Source: a virus (taxonomy: Duplodnaviria > Heunggongvirae > Uroviricota > Caudoviricetes). Taken from it: a stretch of 11,577 nucleotides of DNA. The stretch is taken from the IMG/VR virus record IMGVR_UViG_3300018477_000015, positions 1-11,577 of that record; one strand, given 5' to 3'. The notes beneath the pieces were generated by a model. The model had not been told where the DNA came from and ran no database searches. It saw only the letters and a list, made by a program, of their open reading frames with translations. The translations under genes were made by a program, and so were the position numbers. Positions 317-11,577 of this stretch are shown piece after piece. Numbering within the stretch: the first letter of the stretch is position 1; the number at the start of each line of letters is the position of its first letter.

Positions 317-623
317 AAAAACCGGTATTTGTTACCTGATCATCCACGATCATTGAAACGTGAACATTATTAGGTGTGCTCTCGTAATCTGTTCTTATTC
401 TTTCCGCGATACTGATAAAACGTGAAAGTTTAGGCAGTGCAATTGGGTAAACGACTTTAGCCAGTCCATTATCATTAGACCCACCCGTTCCAAAGACTTC
501 TATTGCACCATCTGACCAGCGAATCCATGCACCATTGGCATTAGCTCCTCGCTGAATGATATATCTGGCTTCTCCCAAACCAACGTTTATGAAAATGCAG
601 AAATAACGATCAAATGGCATCAT
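240..623 (-). CDS. side tail fibre C-terminal receptor-binding segment, alternate unfused copy reading inward through the inversion crossover site
   Basis: The C-terminal portion resembles lambda Stf-type fibre tips by eye (YPIALP, VTNTGF, terminal WRVYCAPV versus lambda IRVMAIGY from memory). The ORF runs through the 26-bp crossover site at 570-595 and has no convincing RBS, as expected for a variable fibre segment expressed only after inversion fuses it to the constant part. Confidence 0.5.
   Translation of the reverse strand: MMPFDRYFCIFINVGLGEARYIIQRGANANGAWIRWSDGAIEVFGTGGSNDNGLAKVVYPIALPKLSRFISIAERIRTDYESTPNNVHVSMIVDDQVTNTGFYARCQMYDGRPSSNAFSWRVYCAPV
570..595. other. Hin/Gin/Pin-type inversion crossover site (26 bp, two imperfect inverted 12-bp half-sites around a central AA)
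   Basis: TTCTCCCAAACC-AA-CGTTTATGAAAA. It matches my recollection of hixL (TTCTTGAAAACCAAGGTTTTTGATAA) at about 20 of 26 positions and lies 55 bp upstream of the invertase start, the usual position. Confidence 0.6.
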
Positions 624-649
624 TCCTGCTTTTGTCAGGGAGATCTACC

Positions 650-1204
650 ATGCTTATTGGCTATGTACGTGTGTCAACAAATGACCAGAACACAGATCTA
701 CAACGTAATGCGCTGAACTGTGCAGGATGCGAGCTTATTTTTGAAGACAAGATAAGCGGTACAAAGTCCGAAAGGCCGGGACTGAAAAAACTGCTCAGGA
801 CATTATCGGCAGGTGACACGCTGGTGGTCTGGAAACTGGACCGGCTGGGGCGCAGTATGCGGCATCTTGTCGTGCTGGTGGAGGAGTTGCGCGAACGAGG
901 CATCAACTTTCGTAGTCTGACTGATTCAATTGATACCAGCACACCGATGGGGCGTTTTTTCTTTCATGTGATGGGGGCCCTGGCTGAAATGGAACGAGAA
1001 CTGATTGTTGAACGAACAAAAGCTGGACTGGAAGCTGCTCGCGCACAGGGACGAATTGGTGGACGTCGTCCCAAACTTACACCAGAACAATGGGCGCAGG
1101 CCGGGCGACTAATTGCATCAGGAGTTCCTCGCCAGAAGGTGGCGATCATTTATGATGTTGGCGTATCGACTTTGTATAAGAAGTTTCCGGTCGGAGATAA
1201 ATGA
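650..1204 (+). CDS. pin: serine recombinase, DNA invertase (Pin/Hin/Gin/Cin family)
   Basis: Translation from ATG 650 begins MLIGYVRVSTNDQNTDLQRNAL... with the catalytic-serine motif and C-terminal HTH (GRIGGRRPKLT...STLYKK), near-identical in pattern to e14 Pin as I recall it. AGGGAGA sits 6 nt upstream of ATG 650. The upstream ATG at 614 would add a non-conserved extension. Confidence 0.92.
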   Translation: MLIGYVRVSTNDQNTDLQRNALNCAGCELIFEDKISGTKSERPGLKKLLRTLSAGDTLVVWKLDRLGRSMRHLVVLVEELRERGINFRSLTDSIDTSTPMGRFFFHVMGALAEMERELIVERTKAGLEAARAQGRIGGRRPKLTPEQWAQAGRLIASGVPRQKVAIIYDVGVSTLYKKFPVGDK

Positions 1205-1284: not shown

Positions 1285-1932
1285 CTATGAAGCTAATTTG
1301 TTTAATTTCATTTGTAGTGACTTTACTTCTTGGTCGATAATGTCGAATCCCTTATTGACAGCATCTCTTAGCTCTGCATCAATATTTTTTATCCCTTGAG
1401 CATAATCTACCATTACATTTATTTTTGCATCATGTAATCTCTTATACATGGTTTTATCTTTGTTATTGTCTGCCATGCCAATAAGGATTTTTTCATAATC
1501 CTCAATGAGTTTGTTGTTTCCTTTAAATGATTGTATTAATGAGCGTGAATATGTGTATATGTTAATTATTGAGTCTCTAGCAGAATCATTTAGTTTTGCA
1601 ATGACATTCGCATTTTTCTCATAGAATGTGAAATTATCATCCCCTACAGGGAATGTGAGAATCAACATTTGTCCCGGTTTTATATTATCAATGTGTGTTT
1701 TCATCCTTTTATTATATAAATTGATTAGGGTGAAAACTTCTCCCTTAACTCCTTTTAATACTGAAAGTTGTAATTCAAGGGATTCTCTTTCTGTCTCTAC
1801 TTTAGACAGCTTAGCTTGTTGGGTAACTCCTTTTAGGGTAAACCATCCGCCAATAAGAGTACCAACTAGAGCTGTGAGGGAGGAGGATAACCATCCAGGT
1901 ATGCTATTTAAAAGATTACTAAATTCACTCAT
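1285..1932 (-). CDS. hypothetical membrane-anchored protein (single N-terminal TM helix, then coiled-coil and globular region); AT-rich accessory gene
   Basis: 215-aa ORF. Residues about 10-32 (IPGWLSSSLTALVGTLIGGWFTL) are hydrophobic, followed by a charged heptad-like stretch. Low GC compared with flanking phage genes. No family recognised. Confidence 0.6.
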   Translation of the reverse strand: MSEFSNLLNSIPGWLSSSLTALVGTLIGGWFTLKGVTQQAKLSKVETERESLELQLSVLKGVKGEVFTLINLYNKRMKTHIDNIKPGQMLILTFPVGDDNFTFYEKNANVIAKLNDSARDSIINIYTYSRSLIQSFKGNNKLIEDYEKILIGMADNNKDKTMYKRLHDAKINVMVDYAQGIKNIDAELRDAVNKGFDIIDQEVKSLQMKLNKLAS

Positions 1933-1990: not shown

Positions 1991-2269
1991 CTACTGGAGA
2001 AGGCTACCTGAACTTCGATCTATTCCTGCATCCATATAGTTGATGGTCTTCTGGAGCTCTTCGATTAGGGCAACAGCTTTTGCTCGAGAAATGCATATTA
2101 GTTGATCCGGAAATTCTTGTAAGGGCCAGTTTGGTATACAGGCCATGTTATCAGTGAAGGATGCAGACAAGTAAACTTCATTGGTAACCAGAGAATAGCT
2201 TACCTCAAAATTGGTGAGTTCCGGCAAACTGCTAACGTTTGACTCTTTTCTGCGCATAATATTATCCAT
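1991..2269 (-). CDS. hypothetical small protein; start uncertain (ATG at 2269 giving about 92 aa, or upstream ATG at 2419 giving 142 aa)
   Basis: Open frame in the AT-rich island. The N-terminal 50 residues of the long form are Cys/Trp-rich and contain the C9T6 tract, so the shorter form is favoured. No clear SD for either start. Confidence 0.35.
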   Translation of the reverse strand: MDNIMRRKESNVSSLPELTNFEVSYSLVTNEVYLSASFTDNMACIPNWPLQEFPDQLICISRAKAVALIEELQKTINYMDAGIDRSSGSLLQ

Positions 2270-2346
2270 GACTGTAATTATGTACAGGTGATGGTCTTCA
2301 ATTTCGAAGAGGGAGTCAAGGGGGAGTCTCAAATGAACCGTTATAG

Positions 2347-2361
2347 AAAAAAGGGGGGGGG
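2347..2361. repeat. homopolymeric tract A6G9 (C9T6 on the minus strand)
   Basis: Direct reading: aaaaaa at 2347-2352, ggggggggg at 2353-2361. Confidence 0.9.
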
Positions 2362-2409
2362 ATCTTTGTGTTGCTGAACTTATGCAAAATTTTTTTGCAC
2401 CATAAATCC

Positions 2410-2670
2410 AACAACACATTCAATAACACATTGCTGTATCACTATGAAAATAAATGTGTTTTTATTTGATTTCACACATATCACAATTAATACAGCGTTT
2501 AGTAATTAGTAAAGACATTTCAATGAATTACCGTTAAATCATTTTAAAATCAGTAAGTTGTATCGAGTTTGTATGCTTTACTGTCATTAACTTACTGTAT
2601 GTTGATCCAGTGTATTTAACCTTGATAAACTCAGTCCAGCAACACAAAACCGCAACACATTGCATTTTGT
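2410..2670. promoter_or_regulatory. AT-rich integrase-upstream region with repeated short motifs; candidate attP arm-site or int regulatory region
   Basis: AACACATT at 2413-2420, 2425-2432 and 2654-2661, with an inverted copy at 2453-2460. A 9-bp perfect inverted repeat CAGTAAGTT/AACTTACTG at 2551-2559 and 2589-2597. Repeated TTGTAT and TTACTGT motifs. Confidence 0.3.
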
Positions 2671-2732
2671 CCCGTAGAAAAGACTTGTATGTGTGTGCTT
2701 GTTTTCTGCGCCTACGCAGATAAGGATTGAGA

Positions 2733-4130
2733 ATGCCGCGCACTGTAACACATAATCCGGATAGCCCCAATAATGACGATGTTTTAGCCGCATCTGAAAA
2801 ATGGGACGCCTGTAAACCCCCCTATACCAGCGCACACATGAAAATCTGTGTTGCTGCCGCCAAAATCATCCTCGCTGCTTCCGGCGTGGCTCGCCGTTCC
2901 AAATACGAAAAAGAGAACTATCTCCGTATCGATTTCAGCAAAGCCGGTAAGGTTACATTTTACGCCGAGTTTCCAAAAAAGATGGGCCTCAAAGGTAAAA
3001 AGCTCGGCGAGTGGCCGGAGCTCGCTATTCAGCTGGCGCGCGAAAAAGCGCTAGGTATGGCTGACGGTGGCCTGCGTGCAGAGTCCGTACATGCAGCGCT
3101 GGAAATGTACCGGGATGACCTCAAAGCCAAAGTCGCCCGGCAGAAGCTGAGCCCGGACAGTTTCACAACCTACGGGGTGCGTATCGACCGGATTAAAGCA
3201 ACGTTCGGCGAGCGCGAGGTGTTCAGCGACGTAACATACAATCGGCTGGTGGAAGTGCTGGACGAGTGGATCGCTACTCGCTCGAACAATAACGCCCTGG
3301 AGTTGTTTGCCGAGCTCCGTCGGTTCTGGAAGTTCTGCGCACCTACTCTTTGCAACGGCCGCAATGTTGCCGCCAGTCTGCCAGATGATTATGTTTCCTC
3401 CCGCGTACAGAAACCTACCCCCACACGGCTTTTTACCGATATTGAATCAATCGCCCGACTCTGGCTCAATGTTGCTGCCTGCACCTCTGTACACCAGAAG
3501 AATGCTGTTCGCTTCATGATCATCACTGGTGTTCGTCCGATTAATGTCCATAACCTGCGCTGGGACTACGTTCACGAGGAGGCTGGTGAAATTGTTTATC
3601 CGGAAGGGGTTATCGGCATGCGAGGGGCTATGAAAACACAAAAGGCTTTCCGCCTGCCGATAACCCCTGAGATCCGGCGGATTATCGACGAGCAGAAAGC
3701 CTGGCGTGATTCAGTTCCTGAGTGCAACAGGGATTATGTATTTTTGCAGCCACGTGATCCAATGCAGCCATTTTCAAAACGATCACTAGATAAGCTGGTG
3801 AAAACATACAGCCCGGACGGGGCTGTAAAAGGAATAAAACATGATGGGACTGTTAAAGGGAAAGACGGTGCATTTAATACGATGTGCCGTAAATTCCTTA
3901 AGAGCAATGTTATTGCCTTGATGAAGGAAAGAGGCTATTCCCGCTCAGACCGAAGGGAAATCAGCCTCCTTTGCCTTCACCACTCCAGCAAGTCAGATGA
4001 CCCGATGGCAGAACATTACGACTTTTCTGATGAGATTTTACAGGAAGAGATTGCGTTGAAGCGCGAAGCTTTCGAGGCTCACGAGCGGAGCATACTTGCG
4101 CAGGTGGCATTGCTACGGCGGCGAGGTTAA
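2733..4130 (+). CDS. int: tyrosine-type site-specific integrase (P4-like, with N-terminal arm-binding-type domain)
   Basis: 465 aa from ATG 2733, with AAGGA 6 nt upstream; the track's 2727 start is a TTG. The N-terminus (YLRIDFSKAGKVTFYAEF...LGEWPELAIQLAREKA) fits the P4-int arm-binding pattern. The catalytic-domain landmarks are TGVRPINV (Arg), HDGTVKG and CLHHSS...AEHY (His/Tyr region). Confidence 0.85.
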   Translation: MPRTVTHNPDSPNNDDVLAASEKWDACKPPYTSAHMKICVAAAKIILAASGVARRSKYEKENYLRIDFSKAGKVTFYAEFPKKMGLKGKKLGEWPELAIQLAREKALGMADGGLRAESVHAALEMYRDDLKAKVARQKLSPDSFTTYGVRIDRIKATFGEREVFSDVTYNRLVEVLDEWIATRSNNNALELFAELRRFWKFCAPTLCNGRNVAASLPDDYVSSRVQKPTPTRLFTDIESIARLWLNVAACTSVHQKNAVRFMIITGVRPINVHNLRWDYVHEEAGEIVYPEGVIGMRGAMKTQKAFRLPITPEIRRIIDEQKAWRDSVPECNRDYVFLQPRDPMQPFSKRSLDKLVKTYSPDGAVKGIKHDGTVKGKDGAFNTMCRKFLKSNVIALMKERGYSRSDRREISLLCLHHSSKSDDPMAEHYDFSDEILQEEIALKREAFEAHERSILAQVALLRRRG

Positions 4131-4327
4131 TACTGGCTGCGACATTTTTGAATAAAAGCGTCGATATTTCGGCGCTCATAACGAACTACTTTTGCACTGA
4201 AACGAATTGGTGCCAGGATAGCCCGATGACGATGCTTAATATTCCACTCACATAGCGTTTTCTGTGTAATACCTAACTTTTGGCATACTTCATCCGGGGT
4301 GAGTAAATCGTCGGGTTTCTCGCTCAT
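4127..4327 (-). CDS. AlpA/excisionase-family small HTH DNA-binding protein (candidate recombination directionality factor)
   Basis: 66 aa. LLTPDEVCQKLGITQKTLCEWNIK...ILAPIRFSAKVVRYERRNIDAFI fits the AlpA/Xis winged-helix pattern. Its ATG overlaps the helicase stop (ATGA at 4324-4327) and its stop overlaps the int stop convergently. Confidence 0.65.
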   Translation of the reverse strand: MSEKPDDLLTPDEVCQKLGITQKTLCEWNIKHRHRAILAPIRFSAKVVRYERRNIDAFIQKCRSQY

Positions 4328-5718
4328 GCTATACCTCTCTTTTTCATGGCATCGAGCAGGATGTCCTGCACTGTTCGTTTTGAGTTGCGCCGCTCCATCA
4401 CCATTTCATCCATAGTGTCGGCAGCAATAATGTGGTGAATAAATACCGGACGATTGTGTCCGGCCTGTATCTGCCTGGTGGGGCCGATACGTTCAATAAT
4501 TTGCTGATATTGCTCCAGGTCCCACCAGTGTGAGAAAAATACCAGTATATTTCCGCCGTCCTGCATGTTCAGGCCGTGGCCCGCGCTGGCTGGGTGTGCA
4601 AAGAGAACAGGAATCTTTCCGGAATTCCAGTCGCGCAGTGTCTGTGGATCCTGGTCGAGGTGACGACCGCGAGGGAATGCTTTAAGCAAGCGTTCAAGAT
4701 CGTGTTTCCAGTGATAAGCAACCAGCACAGGTGCGCCAGCTGCTTCGGTCAGTATGCTGTCCAGCGCCTGTAGTTTGGTGTCATGCAGTTCTGACCAACT
4801 TCCGGTGTCATCTGTGTATACTGCGCCGCTGGCGATTTGCAGACACTTCAGTGTCTTTGCCGCGGCGTTCGGTGCTTCGATGCCTTCGCCATTCAGCTCG
4901 AGGAACATTTCCTTTTCCATTTCACGATACTGCTGACGGGCCTTCGGCGGCATATCCACGCGGATTACGTTATGGATGGGGTCTTTGATATCGAACCAGT
5001 CGGCCGCATCCAGCGAGAGGGTTACATCGGCTAACGCTCGCTGTATTTCACCCTGTGAGTGAGCAAAAGGCTCCAGTTTGGTCCAGCTCTGCCCCGGAAA
5101 CTGTATCGAGTTGAACCAGCGTGAGGTAAACGCGCCGTAAGTGCGCCCGAGACGTTGCCCCTGGTCCACAAACCACGATTGTCCCCACAAATCTACCAGG
5201 CCGTTCGGTGCTGGCGTACCGGTGAGATTTATCCAGCGCCGGACATACTTATGCGCCACTTTGCCCAGCGCCGCCGCGCGCTTACCACCACCGCGCAGCC
5301 GGAAGGATTTTAGCCGGGTGCTTTCATCTGGAATGACAGTACCGAACGGCCATCGTTCTCCCAATTCTTCAACCAGCCAGACAAGGTTATCGTAGTTGAT
5401 GGTGAACACGCTTGCGTTGCTGTTCGTCAGCGCCATAGAGCGCGCTTTGGCATTACCAATAATTGGCTGCACCTCGATATTGCGCAAATGTCCCCACTTC
5501 AGTGCTTCATCCGGCCATGTGCTGGCAGCCACGCGCAGCGGCGCGAGGACCAGTGCGGGGCATGTTTCTGCCCCTGCCATAAAGAGATCTTCCAGCGCAG
5601 TGAGCGTTGCCACGGTTTTACCCATTCCCATCCCCGCCCAGATGTTGCCGCGCAGGGTTTCGGTTTCGTGGTTGATAATGAGATCTTGGTAGGGGCGAGG
5701 TATATATTTTGGGGGCAT
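4324..5718 (-). CDS. SNF2-family ATP-dependent helicase (phage replication or recombination module)
   Basis: 464 aa with RPYQ, Walker A AGMGMGKT, DExx box IPDESTRL, motif III LTGTPAPN and a C-terminal GLNMQ...ERIGPTRQIQAG block resembling SNF2 motifs V/VI. AGGAG sits 9 nt upstream of ATG 5718. Confidence 0.85.
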   Translation of the reverse strand: MPPKYIPRPYQDLIINHETETLRGNIWAGMGMGKTVATLTALEDLFMAGAETCPALVLAPLRVAASTWPDEALKWGHLRNIEVQPIIGNAKARSMALTNSNASVFTINYDNLVWLVEELGERWPFGTVIPDESTRLKSFRLRGGGKRAAALGKVAHKYVRRWINLTGTPAPNGLVDLWGQSWFVDQGQRLGRTYGAFTSRWFNSIQFPGQSWTKLEPFAHSQGEIQRALADVTLSLDAADWFDIKDPIHNVIRVDMPPKARQQYREMEKEMFLELNGEGIEAPNAAAKTLKCLQIASGAVYTDDTGSWSELHDTKLQALDSILTEAAGAPVLVAYHWKHDLERLLKAFPRGRHLDQDPQTLRDWNSGKIPVLFAHPASAGHGLNMQDGGNILVFFSHWWDLEQYQQIIERIGPTRQIQAGHNRPVFIHHIIAADTMDEMVMERRNSKRTVQDILLDAMKKRGIA

Positions 5719-5732
5719 ATAATATGGCTCCT

Positions 5733-5768
5733 AAACAACAAAAGGCCAATTTAGGCCTTTTGTTGTTT
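5733..5768. other. perfect 15-bp inverted repeat with 6-nt loop (possible attenuator, weak terminator or processing hairpin)
   Basis: AAACAACAAAAGGCC-AATTTA-GGCCTTTTGTTGTTT. It lies between the stop of the 305-aa gene (5781) and the helicase RBS, and is U-rich on either strand. Confidence 0.5.
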
Positions 5769-5780
5769 TAAAAATGTTAT

Positions 5781-6698
5781 TTATAATAGTGCTGTTACTA
5801 TTGCATCTTTAAAAATATTTTCTTCTTCATTTATTAAAGGTGATGACAGATGAATAATTACTTCTTTTCCTGTCAATACTATTTGCTCGACTTGAAATCC
5901 TGCGTTGTGTAGTCTTTGGCGTAACTTTTCTAGTGCTGATTTTGATATACTAAATCCTTCACTCCTTATAGTATAACTGGCAACTCCATTTTTAATAATA
6001 TCTACAGAGTTGTCAATTTCCTGCTGCGAGTAATTTTTCGGTGAGTCGAAAAATCTGGATTTTGTCGTTGCTGTTGCCCTAAGAGATATCAATAATGATT
6101 TGATATCTTTAATCTCAGATGCCAGATACTCAGTTTCTGATACTTCTTTCTGGTCTAGTTGTGCAACTTTGAAAGTGCCAAAATGTTTGAGGAATGTTGT
6201 GTATTCAGGATCAGTTACTGACTTTAAATATGTTTCTTTTATCTTGCTCGCAAGTCTTTCTTTGAATAAATTGATTGATTGGTATCTTAAATCCGAAGGG
6301 TACTCTAAATGTTCAATTGATGAAATGTCAAAGCTATAAGGAGTGCGCTCGTCCTTAATAATTACGGTCGGTTTGTCAAATGCGAGACGCATTCCTAATT
6401 CAAACATTACATTAGCGTTTCGAGCACTTATATCGCAAACAACTATGGGGTTTTCATAAAGATTTTGAACAATTCGTTTTTGTATTACTGCAACATCATC
6501 ATCTGAACTTACCAAATTTGCCTTGAATCCGGCATCATTTGATGCTTCACAAATAATGTCATGAACATTTCTCCAATGTCCAGTGGGATAACCTTCTATG
6601 TCCGCAATTGGCATAATAATGCCGCATATATGAGGTGGCATATTTTTGTTGTCTTTTACATCATCTTGGTTTATTTCTTTCGTTTGTTGCTTAGCCAT
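5781..6698 (-). CDS. hypothetical protein with N-terminal TIR-like / nucleoside 2-deoxyribosyltransferase-like (Rossmannoid) domain and uncharacterised C-terminal domain; AT-rich insertion
   Basis: 305 aa. N-terminal region has ICGIIMPIA, then DDDVAVIQKRIVQNLYENPIVVCDISARNANVMFELGMRLAFDKPTVIIKDE and EYPSDLRY. The FE(L)G acidic motif after a buried strand is typical of TIR-like (PF10137-type) and NDT-like folds as I recall them. GC content is clearly lower than in the flanking helicase and VRR-NUC genes. Confidence 0.5.
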   Translation of the reverse strand: MAKQQTKEINQDDVKDNKNMPPHICGIIMPIADIEGYPTGHWRNVHDIICEASNDAGFKANLVSSDDDVAVIQKRIVQNLYENPIVVCDISARNANVMFELGMRLAFDKPTVIIKDERTPYSFDISSIEHLEYPSDLRYQSINLFKERLASKIKETYLKSVTDPEYTTFLKHFGTFKVAQLDQKEVSETEYLASEIKDIKSLLISLRATATTKSRFFDSPKNYSQQEIDNSVDIIKNGVASYTIRSEGFSISKSALEKLRQRLHNAGFQVEQIVLTGKEVIIHLSSPLINEEENIFKDAIVTALL

Positions 6699-6713
6699 AG
6701 CTTACACAGACTC

Positions 6714-6998
6714 CTATTGTAATTTTTTGCCTAATATACATGAAAGCTCCTTACTATCCAGTACTACCACGGTAAAGCCCAGTTTTCGCAGACGTTCATG
6801 CTCGCGCAACTGATCAGGTCGTGGTGGTTTGCCTGGTGCTTTGCATTCGACAAAGACGATGCGACCGCCGGGTAGCAGAACAATGCGATCTGGTACCGAG
6901 CGGAGACCGGGAGATACGAACTTAAAAGCAACCCCGCCAGCCTTTTTTACTTCAGCGACGAGGTGCTTTTCGATTAGGTTTTCACGTTCATAGGCCAT
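6714..6998 (-). CDS. VRR-NUC domain nuclease (PD-(D/E)xK family)
   Basis: 94 aa. GLRSVPDRIVLLPGGRIVFVECKAPGKPPRPDQ contains the D...E-x-K signature in the size and arrangement typical of VRR-NUC, a usual partner of phage SNF2 helicases. Confidence 0.8.
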   Translation of the reverse strand: MAYERENLIEKHLVAEVKKAGGVAFKFVSPGLRSVPDRIVLLPGGRIVFVECKAPGKPPRPDQLREHERLRKLGFTVVVLDSKELSCILGKKLQ

Positions 6999-7192
6999 TA
7001 GCTTTCGCCTTCCTGCTTTTTGCGTTTCTTCATGCAGATAGCGCAGTTCTCAGGATGGTCATGCCATTCGTCAATCCTGATACCTGTGAACATCCATTTT
7101 CCGCATAGTGATATGGCTTCCCCCGAATTAAAGAAATGTGCTTTTTTCGACAGGGCGGGGAACCCCCAACCTTTATTATCGATATTAGACAT
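6998..7192 (-). CDS. small putative zinc-binding protein (64 aa), translationally coupled to the VRR-NUC gene
   Basis: Strong SD (AAGGAGG, 6 nt before ATG 7192). Its stop overlaps the VRR-NUC start (TAATG at 6996-7000). Contains a C-x13-H-x-H-x4-C-x2-C motif (SLCGKW...EWHDHPENCAIC). Confidence 0.55.
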   Translation of the reverse strand: MSNIDNKGWGFPALSKKAHFFNSGEAISLCGKWMFTGIRIDEWHDHPENCAICMKKRKKQEGES

Positions 7193-7370
7193 CGTCCACC
7201 TCCTTACGCTTTTCGCGCATGTTCTGCATCAGACAAAAATCAAACCGACGTTCGCTTTGGCCCAGACCTGCATCGCCCGGTCGTACCCGCTGGACTGTTC
7301 AAGGCGCAAAGCCTCCCGCGCAGTCCGGTAATAAAGCGGACTGTCCCGGTATTTAAATGACATAGGGTTT

Positions 7371-7403
7371 TTATTCCCAAATAAAAAACCCCGCAATGCA
7401 GGG
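7371..7403 (-). terminator. rho-independent terminator downstream of the 253-aa gene (minus-strand sense)
   Basis: Minus-strand RNA forms CCCUGC-AUU-GCGGGG (6-bp stem with one G-U pair) followed by UUUUUUAUUU. It lies about 24 nt after the stop at 7428. Confidence 0.5.
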
Positions 7404-7427
7404 TTGTAATCAACAATAAGGGGGTAA

Positions 7428-8189
7428 TTACGAGGAAGCGTTAGCTATTTGAGCTTGTGTAAATTCGAAACCAGAATTTTGTAACCGTTGCACTAGACGA
7501 GGAACTGTTTCACGTACATGGTCGTTGAAATTCAGATACAAAATCCCGTTAGCATCAGAAGGCTGTTCTAGGTGCTGTTTCTGAAGGATTGCTACATTGC
7601 TGCGCCCTAAGGACGAAAGAAGCATACCCATCTCGAGTACAACGTTCTGTCTTGCGCGGGGTTGGATTTCTGCTTCACCGGCGCGCTTTGAGTATCCCAT
7701 ATCATCAGGTGTCAAAAGAACAATCCCGAAACGGGTAGCAGTTTGTCCTTGCCCAATTTCACGTTCAAGCTCTTCAATAATGGTGAGTCCAGTCCCTCCC
7801 GTATTCTGCAAAATGAAATGGTCTGGTAATCCAAGTTTATGAAGGATTAGCTCAAGTTGTTCCTTTGCAGTATGGTCATGGCCGTGAACAATGAATATCT
7901 TTTTGGGAAGCTCAGATGGCTGTTCTACGGCTAGTGGTGTTGCCGTGGGGGGCGTTCCTAAATGGGACATTATTGCAGTTTCAACATTGGGACGTTCTTG
8001 AGGGTTACCTTGAAACTGAATGGTCCGGGTGGTGTAAAGGTTAACAATTACGCCATTCGTTAAACGATAGCAGTCATAAGTCTCACGCTGTTCGTGGGAA
8101 AAATTGGTGAACCCACACTCCCTCAAAAAGTCAGGAAAAGATTCTCTCGGGTATGGATAGGTGATCGGCATTTCAGTTAGTTCCTGCAT
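7428..8189 (-). CDS. TIR-like domain protein (C-terminal TIR-like/NDT-like Rossmannoid domain, uncharacterised N-terminal domain of about 95 aa)
   Basis: 253 aa. C-terminal half has KIFIVHGHD, then FGIVLLTPDDMG...PRARQNVVLEMGMLLSSLGRSNVAILQK and QPSDANGILYLNF, the same motif order as the 305-aa protein and matching my recollection of the PF10137-type TIR-like family. AGGA about 10 nt upstream of ATG 8189. Followed by its own terminator. Confidence 0.55.
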   Translation of the reverse strand: MQELTEMPITYPYPRESFPDFLRECGFTNFSHEQRETYDCYRLTNGVIVNLYTTRTIQFQGNPQERPNVETAIMSHLGTPPTATPLAVEQPSELPKKIFIVHGHDHTAKEQLELILHKLGLPDHFILQNTGGTGLTIIEELEREIGQGQTATRFGIVLLTPDDMGYSKRAGEAEIQPRARQNVVLEMGMLLSSLGRSNVAILQKQHLEQPSDANGILYLNFNDHVRETVPRLVQRLQNSGFEFTQAQIANASS

Positions 8190-8253
8190 AAGTATTGTTC
8201 CTTTAATTTACTCGAATTCAGCATGTCGCCATAGCTCGATAAGGTGAGTTATA

Positions 8254-10350
8254 TCAATCTTTTTTGTAGTGGTACGCCTCAAAGCCGCCAGCGTTCAGCG
8301 GAATATCGGGTGCCCATTCGGGGTTAGTGGAGAGAAGCGCGGAAAGCGCTTTATCGTTGAAATCTTCTGTGTCTGGTGCTTCGGTGATCACCTCGTCGTG
8401 TACCGTTAGCACAATGCTGTAACCGGCACCCTCGATCAGCGGCATGTTTCTGGCCAGAACGTCGCGGGCGGCCGCCTGGGTGACGTTCTCCACCAGCTTT
8501 CCGCCGTAGGTTTTGAGTCGTTGCCATTTACGCGAATAAGAGTTAACACCCATGTAGGTGATATTCCCTTGTTCGATAACCGGAGACGGGTAGCATACAG
8601 CGCGTCCGGATGGTAGCTGTATGCGCAGCCACGCGCCATCACGTCGGATTTTAAGATAGCCGCAATACAATGTTTTTTGCGGTATGGCGATTGCTGTGCG
8701 GACAGTGCGCTCCAGCTCGTACCAGAAATCGCAGGTCGCCGGGTGCGCCCTGCGCCACAGGCGCTTGAGCGAGTCACATGCGATGAATACACGCTCGGAA
8801 AGGCCAAAGGTCGACTTACGTTTAACCGATTCGTCGTACCAGCTTTTCGCCTCGCGGATAACATCGCGGGGAATGTTTGGCAGTGCGGCGTTCGCCAGCT
8901 CGTCGAGATCGAGACCGTAAACCAGAGCAAAAGTGATGAAAGCCGATACACCACCTCCATAACCCAGACCGAGTTCCATGACTTTACCGATCTGACGCAT
9001 GTGTTTATCAACATCATCTGGTGCAATATCGAAAGCTTTTGCATACGCCAGTTTATATAAGTCCGGACCCGTTCCAGCGTCATACTCTCTGAATGCATTC
9101 AGTTTCCATTCTTCTCCCGCCAGCCATGCCAGCATACGGCCTTCAATGTTTGACAAGTCACTTACCACCAGTTTTTTGCCTGTTGGCGCGATAATGCAGC
9201 CACGTAACGCTGAACTGGTTAGTTCCATGATATTGTCAAACAGCAGGTCTGCACATCCGGCTTTCAGTGCTTCGATGCCTTCGTCTATTTGTTCCTGTTT
9301 TAGTGAAGGGCGGGGAAGGTTCTGGGGCTGGAATAGCCGTCCGGCCCAACGACCGGTACGTGACGCCCCGCAGAACTGTAGCGTACCGCGTAAGCGCCCG
9401 TCGTGGCTTACGCCTTTCATCAGTGCCTTGTATTTACTGGTGCTGGTAGTACTGGCTTGCAGGCGGATAGCCAGCAGTTCTTTCACGGCAGATGATAAAT
9501 CGGGGTCGGCCATACGACGTTCCAGGGTACTGCGTTGCATGTCTGGTAGCTCCACACCGTAGGATTCAACGATGTGCTTAATCAACGCGTCCCGTTGTGT
9601 GGCTGCCTGCACTTCGCCATCAGTCATTTCCTGTGTACGCTTTGCCAGGCGCTTTTGCTCCTGGTCTACCGCTTCGATCGCAGCGCGCGCGAGTTGCATG
9701 TCCATGCAGACGCCCCGGTCGTTGATCTGCTGATCACGATGCCAGAGCGCCAGCTCTGTCCCCTGATAATTCCACTTCGGCAGACGTTTATAGACTTCGC
9801 GCATTGCTTCGATATCCAGTCCGGCGTAAGCAACAAAGCGCCGCCATTCTTCCGGATGGGTTTTACTGGTGGCCCGACGCAGTTTGCTGTTTTTCGGATG
9901 TGGCTTACAGAACAGCTGGATCAGCGCTTTACCTTCTTTGTCCTTCGCTTTGTCTTGCGGGACGCCTAGTACTTCGCAGAGTTCCCCCAGAGACCCCGGG
10001 AGACCGTGCGCCAGCGCCTGCACCATCGTGTCGCGCCAACGTTCGACTGGCGGTGCCAGTCGCGGCATTGCATAACGCAGAACGGTGCGGTCGAAGTGAG
10101 AGTTATGGAAATAAAGCAGGGTTTCAGGGTCTGCGATTGCTTCGTATAAGCCGTGTGGAATACCACCACCGGCAGTGATATCCCACACGTTTACTGGCCC
10201 GTCGTTGATAGCCCATGCGAAAAGCATCACTTCAACGCCTTCGGCATACGCATGGGTACCGTTCGTAATAGGGATTTCGCAATAGGTTTCCAGGTCGCCC
10301 CAGAGAATACTTTGATGTTGTTTATTTGAGGGGACTATATTATTTTTCAT
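8254..10350 (-). CDS. family A DNA polymerase with N-terminal 3'-5' exonuclease domain (phage-type PolA)
   Basis: 698 aa. Exo motif LWGDLETY, polymerase motif [21 protein letters not shown], motif [17 protein letters not shown], motif C LTVHDEV. Confidence 0.9.
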
Positions 10351-10384
10351 ATGGGCAAACTAGCTAATAAAGTTGAGGAAAAAA

Positions 10385-10588
10385 ATGTCTGAATCTAAGT
10401 TCAAACCTGGAGACCGCGTACAACATCTTTCTGGTGGGCCTGTTCTTGTGGTTGTTAGCACAGGATATATTCCTGCAACAGCTTTTAATGGCGACTTCAT
10501 TCGCGTAACTTGTGAATTTTGGGATGAATCTAAAAAAGCTTTCGTAAAACAGGATTTTGTTGAAACTTCTCTTGAAGATTACGAATAA
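10385..10588 (+). CDS. DUF2158 (YodC-like) small protein
   Basis: About 67 aa from ATG 10385, with GAGGA 5 nt upstream; the track's 10373 start is a TTG. KPGDRVQHLSGGPVLVV...CEFWDESKKAFVKQDFVETSL fits the GD.V.L.SGGP...C.WFD...K..F pattern of the DUF2158 family. It lies opposite in orientation to the surrounding replication genes. Confidence 0.65.
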   Translation: MSESKFKPGDRVQHLSGGPVLVVVSTGYIPATAFNGDFIRVTCEFWDESKKAFVKQDFVETSLEDYE

Positions 10589-10604
10589 CTCATAACACAA
10601 TCCT

Positions 10605-10628
10605 CAAAGCGCCCCTAAGGGCGCTTTG
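10605..10628. terminator. bidirectional hairpin terminator between convergent genes
   Basis: Perfect 10-bp stem CAAAGCGCCC / GGGCGCTTTG with CTAA loop, followed by GCGTTT on the plus strand. It sits 17 nt after the DUF2158 stop and 4 nt after the DUF2815 stop. Confidence 0.55.
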
Positions 10629-10632
10629 GCGT

Positions 10633-11181
10633 TTAAATCAGTGCTTCAGCATCAGCACCTTCGCTGATATCGTCGAAATCGTCAGCGCTTGCCACTCCGC
10701 CGCCAGCGAATGCATCGCCGTCTCGCAGGAACTGGACTCCGCCGAGTGAGGCATTAATGCGTTTACCGAAATTATTGTCCTGTGCCCAGATATCGATAAC
10801 GGCGTTTACATAGCACCCTGCATAGGGACGTCCATCAGCCTGAATTAGTGGCGAACGATCGCGATCAAGAACAGCTGGGCGCGCTTTGTTAGCAGCATTC
10901 AGGAAGAAATTACCGGGGAAGCCTTCATACTCTGCTTTTTCATCACCATCATGCAGGCACAGATTGAGTTTTTTCTCCAGTTGGTTATAAATGGGCTCCC
11001 ACTTCTCTCCCCATTTTTCCTTCGCTACCTGCTTCATAGCTTTACGGATTTCTTCCAGTTGTGGGTGTTTGGGAGACATTAAAAATACTGCGGAGAAACG
11101 CGGATCGCCTTCGCCGTTTACAGTTTTAGCTTCAAACAGAGACGGGAAGGCCAGACGAACATTGTTCAGCTTCAGTTTCAT
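10633..11181 (-). CDS. DUF2815-family phage protein (ssDNA-binding-like), with acidic C-terminal tail
   Basis: 182 aa beginning MKLKLNNVRLAF, the N-terminal signature I associate with DUF2815 proteins found next to phage family A polymerases. AAGGAAA SD 8 nt upstream. C-terminus is DDFDDISEGADAEALI. Confidence 0.65.
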   Translation of the reverse strand: MKLKLNNVRLAFPSLFEAKTVNGEGDPRFSAVFLMSPKHPQLEEIRKAMKQVAKEKWGEKWEPIYNQLEKKLNLCLHDGDEKAEYEGFPGNFFLNAANKARPAVLDRDRSPLIQADGRPYAGCYVNAVIDIWAQDNNFGKRINASLGGVQFLRDGDAFAGGGVASADDFDDISEGADAEALI

Positions 11182-11196
11182 GGGTATTTCCTTAAA

Positions 11197-11577
11197 TCAG
11201 ATGAGGTCTGCGGTTAGCGTATCGTCGGATACGTCGTCGAAATCATTTACAGGGTTGATATTGAGTGCGGGGCGTGGGTCTGACTCGGGAACGACGGTTG
11301 GTTTACCATCAGCTCGTGTTATCAGTGCCTCGACTTTTGACCAACGGCGCGGACTGGCCTTTTTGATAAGTTTTTCGGCTTTTGTGGGACTAATAAGTTT
11401 AAAGTCGAATACTTCTTCAGTTTTGTACCTGAACTGGTCCTTCAGAAGTGCGCGAGCTGCCTCTTCATCACTCCAGGCCCGGTTACCTTGTTTTCCTGTT
11501 ACCAGTTTAAACCCCGGTACCGGATGTCCGGCATTGAGTTCATTGTGAACCCGGTCCCGTACTGCCTTTAGCCAGGA
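11197..11577 (-). CDS. phage replication-module protein, C-terminal 126-aa fragment (5' end outside window); possibly the DUF2800-type nuclease that usually precedes DUF2815
   Basis: Minus-strand frame is open from the window edge to TGA at 11197-11199 and ends ...NDFDDVSDDTLTADLI. The stop lies 15 nt upstream of the DUF2815 start. It is not in the ORF track because there is no Met in the window. The family assignment is a guess from gene order. Confidence 0.45.
   Translation of the reverse strand, partial: SWLKAVRDRVHNELNAGHPVPGFKLVTGKQGNRAWSDEEAARALLKDQFRYKTEEVFDFKLISPTKAEKLIKKASPRRWSKVEALITRADGKPTVVPESDPRPALNINPVNDFDDVSDDTLTADLI

Follow-up and report, generated by a model that had tools for sequence, protein, structure and literature searches.

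The window, by which we mean the whole stretch of 11,577 nucleotides analysed here, derives from a temperate phage of E. coli, and the gene under study is part of its cargo. The gene (Table 1) abuts the VRR-NUC and helicase genes in the same orientation with a gap of 15 nt upstream, and its AGGAG overlaps the stop codon of the VRR-NUC gene (TAG at 6714-6716). Chromosomes of E. coli and phage vB_EcoM-689R2 carry an identically annotated CDS of 918 nt (protein accessions RefSeq WP_001551510.1 and GenBank URC08825.1), and exactly the same protein is encoded on over 1,000 contigs of E. coli. The ORF is real and not a chance one, as one search gave 4,466 homologs and an exhaustive one 9,502 clusters (50% identity). 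The GC content is 0.34-0.37 over positions 5600-6800 compared to 0.50-0.58 in the helicase gene and 0.45-0.50 in the VRR-NUC gene (overall ~0.35 vs ~0.55), in line with the earlier note on this DNA, which had described the ORF as much poorer in GC than its neighbours.

Comparison with sister prophages indicated that the gene lies in a slot where cargo is exchanged. In blastn against the sister loci L009-L012 homology stops at about 5691-5704 and restarts at 6744-6751; on either side, as far as window position ~5700 and from ~6745-6751 onwards, the sister prophages show ~92-98% identity, but the cargo in between differs and consists of BstA (PADLOC, 1e-115), a Dcm methylase or unknown genes. 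The slot between the VRR-NUC and helicase genes is thus confirmed as a cargo hotspot, and since it was filled in every sister prophage examined, it is not the site of a simple insertion. The gene had earlier been regarded as an accessory insertion splitting a conserved helicase/VRR-NUC pair; the accessory nature holds, as the sister prophages swap cargo here, but with the slot empty in none of the sisters examined this is not a simple insertion into a pair that is otherwise adjacent.

Table 1. Features of the cargo gene, its encoded protein and its surroundings in the window (aa, residues of the 305-aa protein).
Feature	Position	Strand	Basis
SNF2-family helicase, left neighbour	4324-5718	-	PF00176 E=6e-11
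Swappable cassette, ~1.05 kb, essentially the cargo gene and its 3' hairpin	5705..6750	-	blastn vs sister loci L009-L012
Stem-loop just 3' of the cargo gene stop; 15-bp A/U+GGCC stem, U-rich 3' arm	5728..5773	-	RNA fold
Cargo gene CDS (complete, 305 aa, 918 nt, ATG start)	5781..6698	-	ORF list and RefSeq/GenBank annotation
Hypervariable C-terminal domain, aa 225-304, predicted compact ββαββα ACT/ferredoxin-like fold	5787..6026	-	AF2 model
Predicted long stalk helix linking core to tail, aa 188-209	6072..6137	-	AF2 models and alignment
Family-specific conserved extension, aa 163-186, DPEYTTFLKHFGTFKVAQLDQKEV	6141..6212	-	Conserved in two family alignments
Predicted Rossmannoid catalytic-type core, aa 22-162; five parallel strands and flanking helices	6213..6635	-	TIR-like/NDT-like model
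Second motif E129-H-L-E-Y-P134 (runs on to D136), cf. PF10137 HLExPSD	6297..6314	-	hhalign
Motif N94-A-N96-V-M-F-E100-L-G-M-R104, putative catalytic Glu E100	6387..6419	-	79-member alignment
Shine-Dalgarno AGGAG, 12 nt 5' of the ATG	6711..6715	-	Read from sequence
VRR-NUC, right neighbour	6714-6998	-	PF08774 E=2e-3; PHROG 93 endonuclease E=3e-31
PDC-S35 TIR gene, second variable slot of the same prophage	7428-8189		PADLOC E=1e-108; PF10137 E=3e-31

The hairpin within the cassette has a folding energy of -23.5 kcal/mol (z=-6.1), and 0 of 200 shuffled sequences were equally stable. It is predicted to be an intrinsic-terminator-like structure, possibly bidirectional, and similar hairpins are located 3' of the stop codon in the family loci L006, L013, L016, L022 and L024. 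As a promoter candidate the scan gave only a sigma-70-like site scoring 9/12, at 6760-6733, and the number of sites was that of shuffles (7 against 7.2 expected); in many other loci the gap upstream of the family gene is 140-440 nt. Throughout the 77 loci compared, the family gene is AT-richer than its flanks. The gene therefore has the features of a moron, namely deviant base composition, variable presence among collinear phages and a terminator-like hairpin of its own.

The family is unusually widespread and spans at least 303 species and at least eight phyla. No Pfam domain is present on any homolog in the precomputed annotation of the homolog search, the NCBIfam search of the protein returned no family, the PHROG matches are the "unknown function" families 3634 and 10872, and PDB chain sequences gave no meaningful match to either the protein or the family profile (best E=0.6-0.8). 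Lacking a Pfam, NCBIfam, PHROG-function or PADLOC-system label, the family is missed by current defence-finding pipelines. Literature searches under the accession, the phage name, PDC-S35, NDT-like defence domains and DefensePredictor found no description of it. A few homologs bear the name "RNA helicase", a mis-annotation with neither domain nor fold support.

The genomic settings of the family are prophage cargo or lysogeny positions and defence islands. The family gene was found in 20 of 50,697 phage records, all identifiable ones being temperate phages or induced prophages, and 160 prophage-sized viral contigs carry it with a bias towards contig ends. The same subtype occupies the same slot in a Klebsiella prophage and is also found in a lambdoid nin region; in K. 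aerogenes it is co-oriented with and abuts VRR-NUC, PolA and helicase genes, as in the window. The lysogeny module houses the gene in Streptococcus phage Javan306 and in a prophage of Latilactobacillus, where it reads in the same direction as repressor and integrase and against the antirepressor. A Vibrio cassette array has it alongside a BstA_C protein, and in one genomic island it adjoins PLDc_2, TIR_2 and GmrSD_N. The two nearest neighbours on either side include mobility genes such as integrases and transposases, as well as TIR_2, AbiEii-like AAA_21, MADS, PARIS AriA, dCTP deaminase, AbiU, PD-T4-6 and PDC-S01. A conserved partner (antitoxin, cyclase or ThsA-like effector) was sought in the 77 loci and none was found, no neighbouring family recurring in more than four loci. 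The gene is thus standalone.

The AlphaFold model shows the N-terminal ~185 aa as a predicted TIR-like/NDT-like Rossmannoid domain, with the elements β23-28, α41-55, β58-62, α69-80, β85-89, α95-105, β111-116, β129-133 and α139-162; the family-specific extension that follows is modelled with low confidence (pLDDT <50 at residues 175-183). Among PDB structures, to which the matching of the model applied, the top matches are MilB, DNPH1, NDTs, Cap12 TIR-STING and TIR. As in the NDT superfamily, the model is a three-layer α/β/α Rossmannoid with a five-stranded parallel sheet, where a Glu (here E100) opens the helix that follows core strand three, in the context G-x-x-(F/Y)-E-(L/I)-G. N96, E100, L101, G102 and R104, as well as F123, D124 and Y133, are invariant in the alignment of 79 members (at least eight phyla and Firmicutes phages), and conservation reaches 90% or more at E129, H130, P134 and D136. 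E100 aligns with the catalytic Glu E104 of DNPH1 (GYELG) in a gapless catalytic block, a position taken by Q in 8qhq, an entry with trapped substrate, and also with the Glu of NVVLEMG in PF10137. These alignments show the putative active-site residue E100 to sit where NDT-superfamily N-glycosidases and TIR-like NADases have their catalytic nucleophile. The earlier note had suggested, from the strand-helix pattern of the N-terminal region and the acidic motif FELG (residues 99-102, nt 6393-6404), a phage-borne accessory enzyme of the TIR/NDT-like class; the model bears out the pattern, and the suggestion is supported.

Profile comparisons link the family to a defence effector. The PADLOC model PDLC00733 (CBASS TIR effector) was matched by 79/79 members at E<=1e-3 (best 5.3e-17; E=1.1e-6 for the protein of the window itself). 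The matches cover only model positions ~256-376 of 388, that is, the effector portion, and show the predicted N-terminal domain to be homologous to the effector domain of the CBASS "TIR" effector class. The whole protein nevertheless differs from this class: the N-terminal ~255 positions of PDLC00733 are unmatched by the family, the cyclic-nucleotide sensor domain of CBASS/CAP12 proteins is missing, and compared to Cap12 TIR-STING (PDB 9lmq) and its class the order is reversed, with the core N-terminal, then the stalk and the variable tail. STING or SAVED domains were not found in the tails in the domain scan of the 79 members, and no CD-NTase/cyclase is among the 25 neighbour families listed for the 77 loci. 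Profiles of PF10137 (CAP12/Pycsar TIR) and Nuc_deoxyrib_tr, which the earlier note had named as relevant, were matched only below threshold: PF10137 with 16.2 bits against a cut-off of 24.7 (weak matches in 27/79 members, best E=1.2e-3) and the NDT family PF05014 with 13.2 bits against 28.8 (54/79 members at E<=0.1; best E=1.8e-4, sub-threshold). The protein does have the NVxxExG catalytic-type motif and the downstream (H)LExPSD motif of PF10137, and hhalign of the two families (probability 46%, E=2e-4) pairs NVMFELGM with NVVLEMGM and EHLEYPSD with QHLEQPSD. MilB (PDB 4ohr/4jem), DNPH1/Rcl (8qhq, 4fyh) and NDTs are stand-alone metabolic enzymes of ~130-160 aa with neither stalk nor variable tail. 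In addition, the invariant H41-W42, K74-R75, Q78-N79, F123-D124 and Y133 replace the aligned residues of DNPH1, so that substrate specificity probably differs from that of DNPH1.

The C-terminal region has evolved in a different manner. It had been noted that the last 170 aa resemble nothing recognisable, which is correct for the last ~95 aa only, as conservation in the family reaches ~residue 205 and falls off along the stalk helix. Although unrecognisable by sequence, these ~95 aa model as a small folded domain, with confidence (pLDDT ~90). Only 2% of tail pairs are alignable, compared to 100% of the N-domain pairs (median 58% identity), and even when the cores are 70-80% identical a common tail is found in 3.4% of pairs. 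Despite the sequence divergence, tail length and predicted fold are retained. These comparisons show that the tail evolves, or is exchanged, almost independently of the core, and we propose that the modelled C-terminal domain may serve as a sensor or specificity module. The tail of one member is an RNAP alpha-CTD domain (E=3e-14); far weaker matches in other members include HMA and ACT (E ~0.003-0.02).

Similar architecture is known from single-gene proteins. In Swarozyc (KpSwz) and Evangelion (Eva01) a TIR-like NADase core of the DUF4062/PF13271 type is joined to a helical stalk and AUX, and such proteins act as Abi systems whose NADase is triggered by portal or by replication (10.64898/2026.05.01.722283; 10.64898/2026.06.25.731849). 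The likeness extends to the ~300-aa single gene, the N-terminal five-stranded TIR-like core followed by a helix and a diversified C-terminal region in which no domains are recognisable, and carriage on plasmids, prophages and islands. The position of the catalytic Glu is nearly the same (E97 in KpSwz, E87 in Eva01, putatively E100 here), in the common context xxxELxxxxAxxx(G/D)KP. The tails differ, however, being HTH/winged helix in Swarozyc and Evangelion and a ~95-aa ACT/ferredoxin-like α/β domain here. Membership in DUF4062 was rejected: hhalign of the family against the DUF4062 profile gave a probability of 0.08%, and 1% against Eva01 (pMW2) alone, PF13271 had no match in the protein at E<=1 and was not one of the 25 families that the scan of the 79 members listed (E<=0.1), and it is annotated on all DUF4062 homologs but on no homolog of the present family. 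The control, hhalign of PF10137 against DUF4062, was equally negative, indicating that these shallow profiles fail to link distant TIR-like families. The exclusion concerns membership only, and kinship at the superfamily level may still exist. Another single-gene TIR-like cargo, the PADLOC phage-defence candidate PDC-S35, occupies another variable slot of this prophage. It belongs to an unrelated subfamily, where the TIR domain is C-terminal and preceded by a conserved ~95-aa N-terminal domain, and a functional link between the two genes was rejected, since L009 has only PDC-S35 and L022 only the gene studied here.

Taken together, we consider it somewhat probable that this one gene forms a complete anti-phage module of the abortive-infection type, which temperate phages, islands and cassette arrays carry as cargo. 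Its design and logic would resemble those of the DUF4062 systems Swarozyc and Evangelion, with a different, unnamed catalytic family. In the lysogen the protein would be idle until the variable C-terminal domain binds some part of a phage attempting superinfection, presumably a protein as in the sensing of portal by Swarozyc. Binding might lead to rearrangement or oligomerisation via the stalk helix, after which the activated core would cut an N-glycosidic bond, most likely that of NAD+ and otherwise that of another abundant nucleotide. Depletion of the nucleotide pool would then abort the infection and protect the lysogen population together with the resident prophage. For this defence role we counted the fold and active site, the unanimous match to a defence-effector model and the behaviour as standalone cargo, and further the contrast between core and tail as a signature of an arms race, the moron features, the distribution in temperate phages and the precedent set by the DUF4062 proteins.

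The structural matches could also be read in terms of metabolism. A phage nucleotide-pool enzyme, that is, a DNPH1/MilB-like (d)NMP N-glycosidase expressed along with replication genes and clearing or recycling particular nucleotides (modified ones or those from the host) while DNA is made in the lytic cycle, would agree with MilB (CMP/hmCMP hydrolase) and DNPH1 being the best matches, with the gapless alignment of the catalytic block with DNPH1 and with the replication genes VRR-NUC, PolA and helicase that the gene abuts in the window and in K. aerogenes; in one sister prophage this operon even includes another gene of NDT-like type (DUF4406, E=9e-34). We find this unlikely, though, as a housekeeping-type enzyme has no need for a hypervariable, shuffled tail, the phage backbone can do without the gene (the sister prophages carry other cargo), and the family is also found far from replication genes, in repressor-strand lysogeny modules, chromosomal islands and cassette arrays. 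No identifiable virulent phage among the 50,697 records has the gene, and every member matches a defence-effector model. The same absence from virulent phages, where anti-defence genes are common, makes a counter-defence function quite improbable. The core would then destroy or mimic host signals of the Thoeris/CBASS/Pycsar type and the tail would adapt to the host systems, as might suit a phage-borne protein with a fold common to enzymes making or cleaving NAD-derived signals, encoded among the early/replication genes in the window phage and present in lambdoid prophages some of which have Acb2/Tad1-like genes. Many members, however, reside in non-phage chromosomal islands by defence genes or in cassette arrays, and the lysogenic strand carries the gene in prophages of Gram-positive hosts; to our knowledge there is no precedent for an NDT-like anti-defence enzyme, and the literature search found none either.

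Wide horizontal transfer as standalone AT-rich cargo would also be expected of an N-glycosidase with intrinsic toxicity, serving to stabilise the mobile element or simply selfish, without sensing phage, the tail being autoinhibitory or oligomerising and drifting neutrally. Single proteins with fused toxin- and antitoxin-like parts exist (CapRel), which speaks for such an addiction role, but it is very unlikely: a conserved antitoxin partner was not found in the 77 loci, neutral drift fails to explain unalignable tails on 70-80% identical cores with length and fold kept, and the gene positions are typical of exclusion genes expressed in the lysogen. Least of all do we expect the core to be non-catalytic, either merely binding a ligand or being a generic flavodoxin- or receiver-like module, as the invariant Glu is exactly at the catalytic position in a motif common to two enzyme families, enzymes rank at the top of the structural matches, and neither the Asp pocket signature of receivers nor a match to a flavin-binding family was found. 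In a variant on immunity that we regard as unlikely, though less so than the other readings, the core would not be an NADase but would cleave N-glycosidic bonds in a novel target, be it an abundant (deoxy)nucleotide, a modified nucleotide of the phage or a nucleic-acid base, and the interchangeable ~95-aa tails would form a natural library of sensors for phage proteins. This would explain why the nearest structures are MilB and DNPH1 and why the pocket residues that replace those of DNPH1 (H41-W42 to Y133, listed above) are frozen at 40-70% identity in at least eight phyla. If true, single-gene immunity would have a new and very widespread effector chemistry, or else the phage would have a means of counter-defence by erasing signals that derive from TIR.

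If the gene is an abortive-infection module, as we favour, the family would be the third of single-gene immune proteins with a TIR-like core, stalk and variable sensor, independent of DUF4062. It would also be one more prophage-borne determinant of host range to consider in phage therapy against E. coli and Klebsiella. The hypothesis is cheap to test, as the gene is short, stands alone and offers E100A/Q as an obvious control without catalysis. In addition, the nearly frozen core, set against tails that are unalignable between close relatives, provides a natural swap experiment on the specificity of sensing.

The 305-aa ORF at 5781-6698 (-), which the earlier note had proposed as an AT-rich accessory insertion, is a real gene, and the same CDS is annotated as hypothetical in RefSeq (WP_001551510.1) and in the induced phage vB_EcoM-689R2. 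Its low GC was confirmed (0.34-0.37, against 0.50-0.58 in the SNF2-family helicase gene and 0.45-0.50 in the VRR-NUC gene), as was its accessory status: sister prophages are 92-98% identical to the window until ~5700 and again from ~6745-6751, and between these points they carry other cargo, mostly on the opposite strand, namely a BstA homolog, a Dcm methyltransferase with a small ORF, or unrelated hypothetical genes. In this prophage lineage the VRR-NUC/SNF2 slot serves as a hotspot for cargo, and the genes that fill it in the four sisters are further candidate defence genes; the 265-aa and 195-aa slot proteins gave no match in Pfam and PADLOC. Among 5,426 complete E. coli genomes only 24 have the target as cargo, yet the exact protein is found on more than 1,000 contigs of a large collection. 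The cassette amounts to little beyond the gene and a strong stem-loop directly 3' of its stop codon (5728-5773; dG -23.5 kcal/mol, z = -6.1), with almost nothing upstream. Two sisters have accessory genes inside the replication operon by VRR-NUC as well, a class I SAM methyltransferase (L011 3865-4347 (-)) and a DUF4406 protein of an NDT-like family (L012 3231-3530 (-), E=9e-34); as a sister operon also carries the latter, NDT/TIR-like genes recur in the replication module in different forms.

Coordinates of genes in the window and in the slot of sister prophages L009-L012
Feature	Location	Remarks
Tail-fibre assembly gene (tfaE-like)	left part of window, 1-2508	
Pin invertase (pinE-type)	window 614-1204	
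Pair of AT-rich ORFs (215 aa and 142 aa)	window 1285-1932 (-), 1991-2419 (-)	GC ~0.31-0.40; between Pin invertase and attP/integrase end
SNF2-family helicase	window 4324-5718	neighbour of target gene
VRR-NUC	window 6714-6998	neighbour of target gene
PDC-S35 TIR gene, 253 aa	window 7428-8189 (-)	PF10137 E=3e-31; PADLOC PDC-S35 E=1e-108; PHROG 16442
BstA homolog	L010 2323-3255	same slot as target; PADLOC E=1e-115
Dcm + 106-aa ORF	L011	same slot as target
Uncharacterised 265-aa protein	L009 2285-3082	same slot as target
Uncharacterised 195-aa protein	L012 2255-2842	same slot as target

The N-terminal part had been suggested to be TIR-like or NDT-like. With the single target sequence, Pfam did return both suggested families, only weakly and below threshold (PF10137, E=0.011; PF05014, E=0.1), and the PADLOC model of the CBASS 'TIR effector' (PDLC00733) matched at E=1e-6. 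The expected Rossmannoid fold was borne out by the AlphaFold model (mean pLDDT 74.6; b-a-b-a-b-a-b-b-a, residues 23-162), for which Foldseek placed MilB at the top (E=2e-5), followed by DNPH1 and several NDTs within a top 20 that also mixes in long low-quality matches (RecJ, GabR, AzoR). In human DNPH1, the Glu of the GYELG motif is replaced by Q in the substrate-trapped PDB entry 8qhq (sequence compared with the PDB), and E100, the Glu of FELG in the target, aligns with it in BLASTP (E=4e-4) as well as in hhalign, within an ungapped block, VV.(D/E)(I/V)(S/T).....V.(F/Y)ELG...AF(D/N)K. When the target-family profile was compared with a PF10137-family profile built from homologs of the neighbouring PDC-S35 gene, NVMFELGM fell on NVVLEMGM and EHLEYPSD on QHLEQPSD (probability 46%, E=2e-4). 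Among 79 members, a set that takes in Firmicutes phage proteins only 22-25% identical, I31, V63, I72, N96, E100, L101, G102, R104, F123, D124 and Y133 are invariant; PDLC00733 matches 79/79 (best 5e-17), and weak matches were obtained to PF05014 in 54 and to PF10137 in 27. Alignments and model show a TIR/NDT-like core whose invariant Glu occupies the position that is catalytic in known enzymes, and the core very probably belongs, in fold and superfamily, to the TIR-like/NDT-like N-glycosidase assemblage. Judged by profile similarity, it is homologous to a CBASS effector domain, and the target proteins group as a family of their own, without a Pfam model. The name 'RNA helicase', which several homologs bear in NCBI/UniRef (P0047, P0057, P0086, P0100), has no domain or fold support and is a propagated mis-annotation.

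The tail behaves very differently. Among 265 members, the N-domains could be aligned in all 34,980 pairs (median identity 58%), whereas any tail similarity was detected in 692 (2%), the tails falling into 142 clusters; even when cores are 70-80% identical, 3.4% of pairs have a recognisable tail in common. By these alignments the contrast is extreme, with the core apparently frozen and the tail shuffled at a steady length near 97 aa. One tail is clearly another small domain (RNAP alpha-CTD, 3e-14) and weaker matches to HMA, ACT and HhH hint at further different domains, which argues for tail replacement alongside divergence. Firmicutes phage members (198-216 aa) have no tail domain.

An exhaustive search gave 9,502 clusters at 50% identity, of which 1,385 reach E<=1e-30; almost without exception the proteins are ~300 aa long. 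A one-genome-per-species scan found the family in at least 303 species of alpha-, beta-, gamma- and delta-Proteobacteria, Bacteroidota, Verrucomicrobiota, Acidobacteriota, Planctomycetota, Lentisphaerota, Nitrospinota and Bdellovibrionota, core identity to the E. coli protein being 46-69%. In 77/77 such loci the flanks are less AT-rich than the gene (median 0.374 for the gene vs 0.51), and no neighbour family recurred in more than four of them, so the gene is standalone. Families that recur among the 148 immediate neighbours are mobile-element markers (phage integrase x4, rve, IS200) and defence-type genes (TIR_2 x2, AbiEii-like AAA_21 x2, MADS, PARIS AriA x2, dCTP deaminase, AbiU, PD-T4-6, PDC-S01), a modest defence-gene enrichment that was counted without a formal background. 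Lambdoid nin regions, a Klebsiella aerogenes prophage integrated elsewhere with the same VRR-NUC/SNF2 slot, a Pseudomonas island with integrase, an island adjoining PLDc_2, TIR_2 and GmrSD_N genes, a Vibrio cassette array with a BstA_C protein, and the lysogeny modules of Streptococcus phage Javan306 and a Latilactobacillus prophage (where the gene shares the strand of repressor and integrase and opposes the antirepressor) all point the same way. The Vibrio array (V. parahaemolyticus, L017/L018, 1-14800) is long and consists of small genes in one orientation with ~30-aa pseudo-ORFs between them; it looks like a chromosomal integron cassette array. Of 50,697 records in a phage collection, 20 carry the gene, all identifiable ones being temperate or induced prophages; in IMG/VR it occurs on 160 mostly prophage-sized contigs, biased towards contig ends. 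Other loci commonly have a hairpin of terminator type directly behind the stop codon and an upstream gap of 140-440 nt. The gene behaves as cargo in hotspots that hold known Abi genes as well.

We give somewhat better than even chances to the target being an anti-phage defence protein. It would then act as a one-gene sensor-effector, in which the tail would sense a component of the incoming phage, the stalk would pass the signal on or bring about oligomerisation, and infection would be aborted through depletion of NAD+ or another nucleotide by the core. Given defence, NAD+ as the substrate has roughly even odds. Structurally closest are nucleotide N-glycosidases, and a set of invariant pocket residues is particular to the family. 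The closest worked-out analogues of this proposed mode of action are the DUF4062 systems Swarozyc, whose NADase activity (catalytic E97) is switched on by the portal and which has helical stalks and an AUX sensor, and Evangelion, with a conserved core and a co-evolved AUX region (10.64898/2026.05.01.722283; 10.64898/2026.06.25.731849). Unlike these, the target is not a DUF4062 protein; DUF4062 was not among the families listed for the 79-member domain scan. It has the catalytic-type domain in common with the CBASS TIR effector class and PF10137 but not their sensors and operons, and its fold and catalytic Glu position recall NDT, DNPH1 and MilB, but it falls below family thresholds and differs in architecture. 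By analogy, the target would be a TIR-like single-protein sensor-effector, a type already known and not categorically new, from an undescribed family: it lies outside the Pfam and NCBIfam models, the PHROG functions and the PADLOC systems, and literature searches found no paper on it. The family is of interest because it is abundant, escapes current pipelines and can be tested cleanly.

Several observations count against the defence reading. Translation of the gene in this phage looks coupled to that of the lytic replication operon, the ribosome-binding site AGGAG overlapping the VRR-NUC stop codon, and the promoter scan upstream found no convincing promoter for the gene itself, the single promoter-like site (6760-6733) being weak and no better than shuffled expectation; the tail-less short Firmicutes members count against it too. 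So does the hairpin between the target and the helicase ribosome-binding site, which simple operon read-through can hardly accommodate. Of the rival readings, a DNPH1/MilB-like nucleotide-pool enzyme serving lytic replication is unlikely, though foremost, and a counter-defence enzyme with immune nucleotides as substrate is less likely again. An addiction-type toxin is improbable. For a family with E100 invariant, a non-catalytic binder is the most doubtful.

The window derives from an E. coli temperate myovirus of ~36-43 kb with the backbone order integrase, AlpA-like regulator, SNF2 helicase, slot, VRR-NUC, small ORFs, slot, family-A DNA polymerase and Enc34-type SSB. Positions 1-2508, as against 2471-11577, match the other end of this prophage in strain Rb-50, ~36 kb away from the target gene; the window therefore runs across the attP junction of a circular or excised phage and is not a contiguous chromosomal prophage. 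For the two AT-rich ORFs at the prophage end, another typical moron position, Pfam, PHROGs, PADLOC and NCBIfam gave no match. Between PolA and the SSB is a third variable spot, where the window has a 71-aa ORF (10373-10588 (+)) and the closest E. coli chromosomes a 209-aa hypothetical gene (L001 10895-11524); this difference explains the two-piece alignment of the window to them. An ANR-family regulator gene (~7185-7363 (-)) sits between a 64-aa ORF (6998-7192) and the PDC-S35 gene; RefSeq annotates it as frameshifted (L001 7716-7894), and at this place the window has two short ORFs that overlap (7229-7396 and 7240-7416).

The PDC-S35 gene occupies the second variable slot, between the small ORFs and PolA; L001 and L009 carry it, and L010-L012 and the Klebsiella prophage locus (L022) lack it. 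It has a conserved ~95-aa N-terminal domain with TIR at the C-terminus and is unrelated to the target, so that there are two different TIR-like candidates, each a single gene, in this one prophage. A terminator-like hairpin just 3' of it (7387-7405 (-), 8-bp stem and T-run) suggests that this cargo gene, too, ends its own transcription unit.
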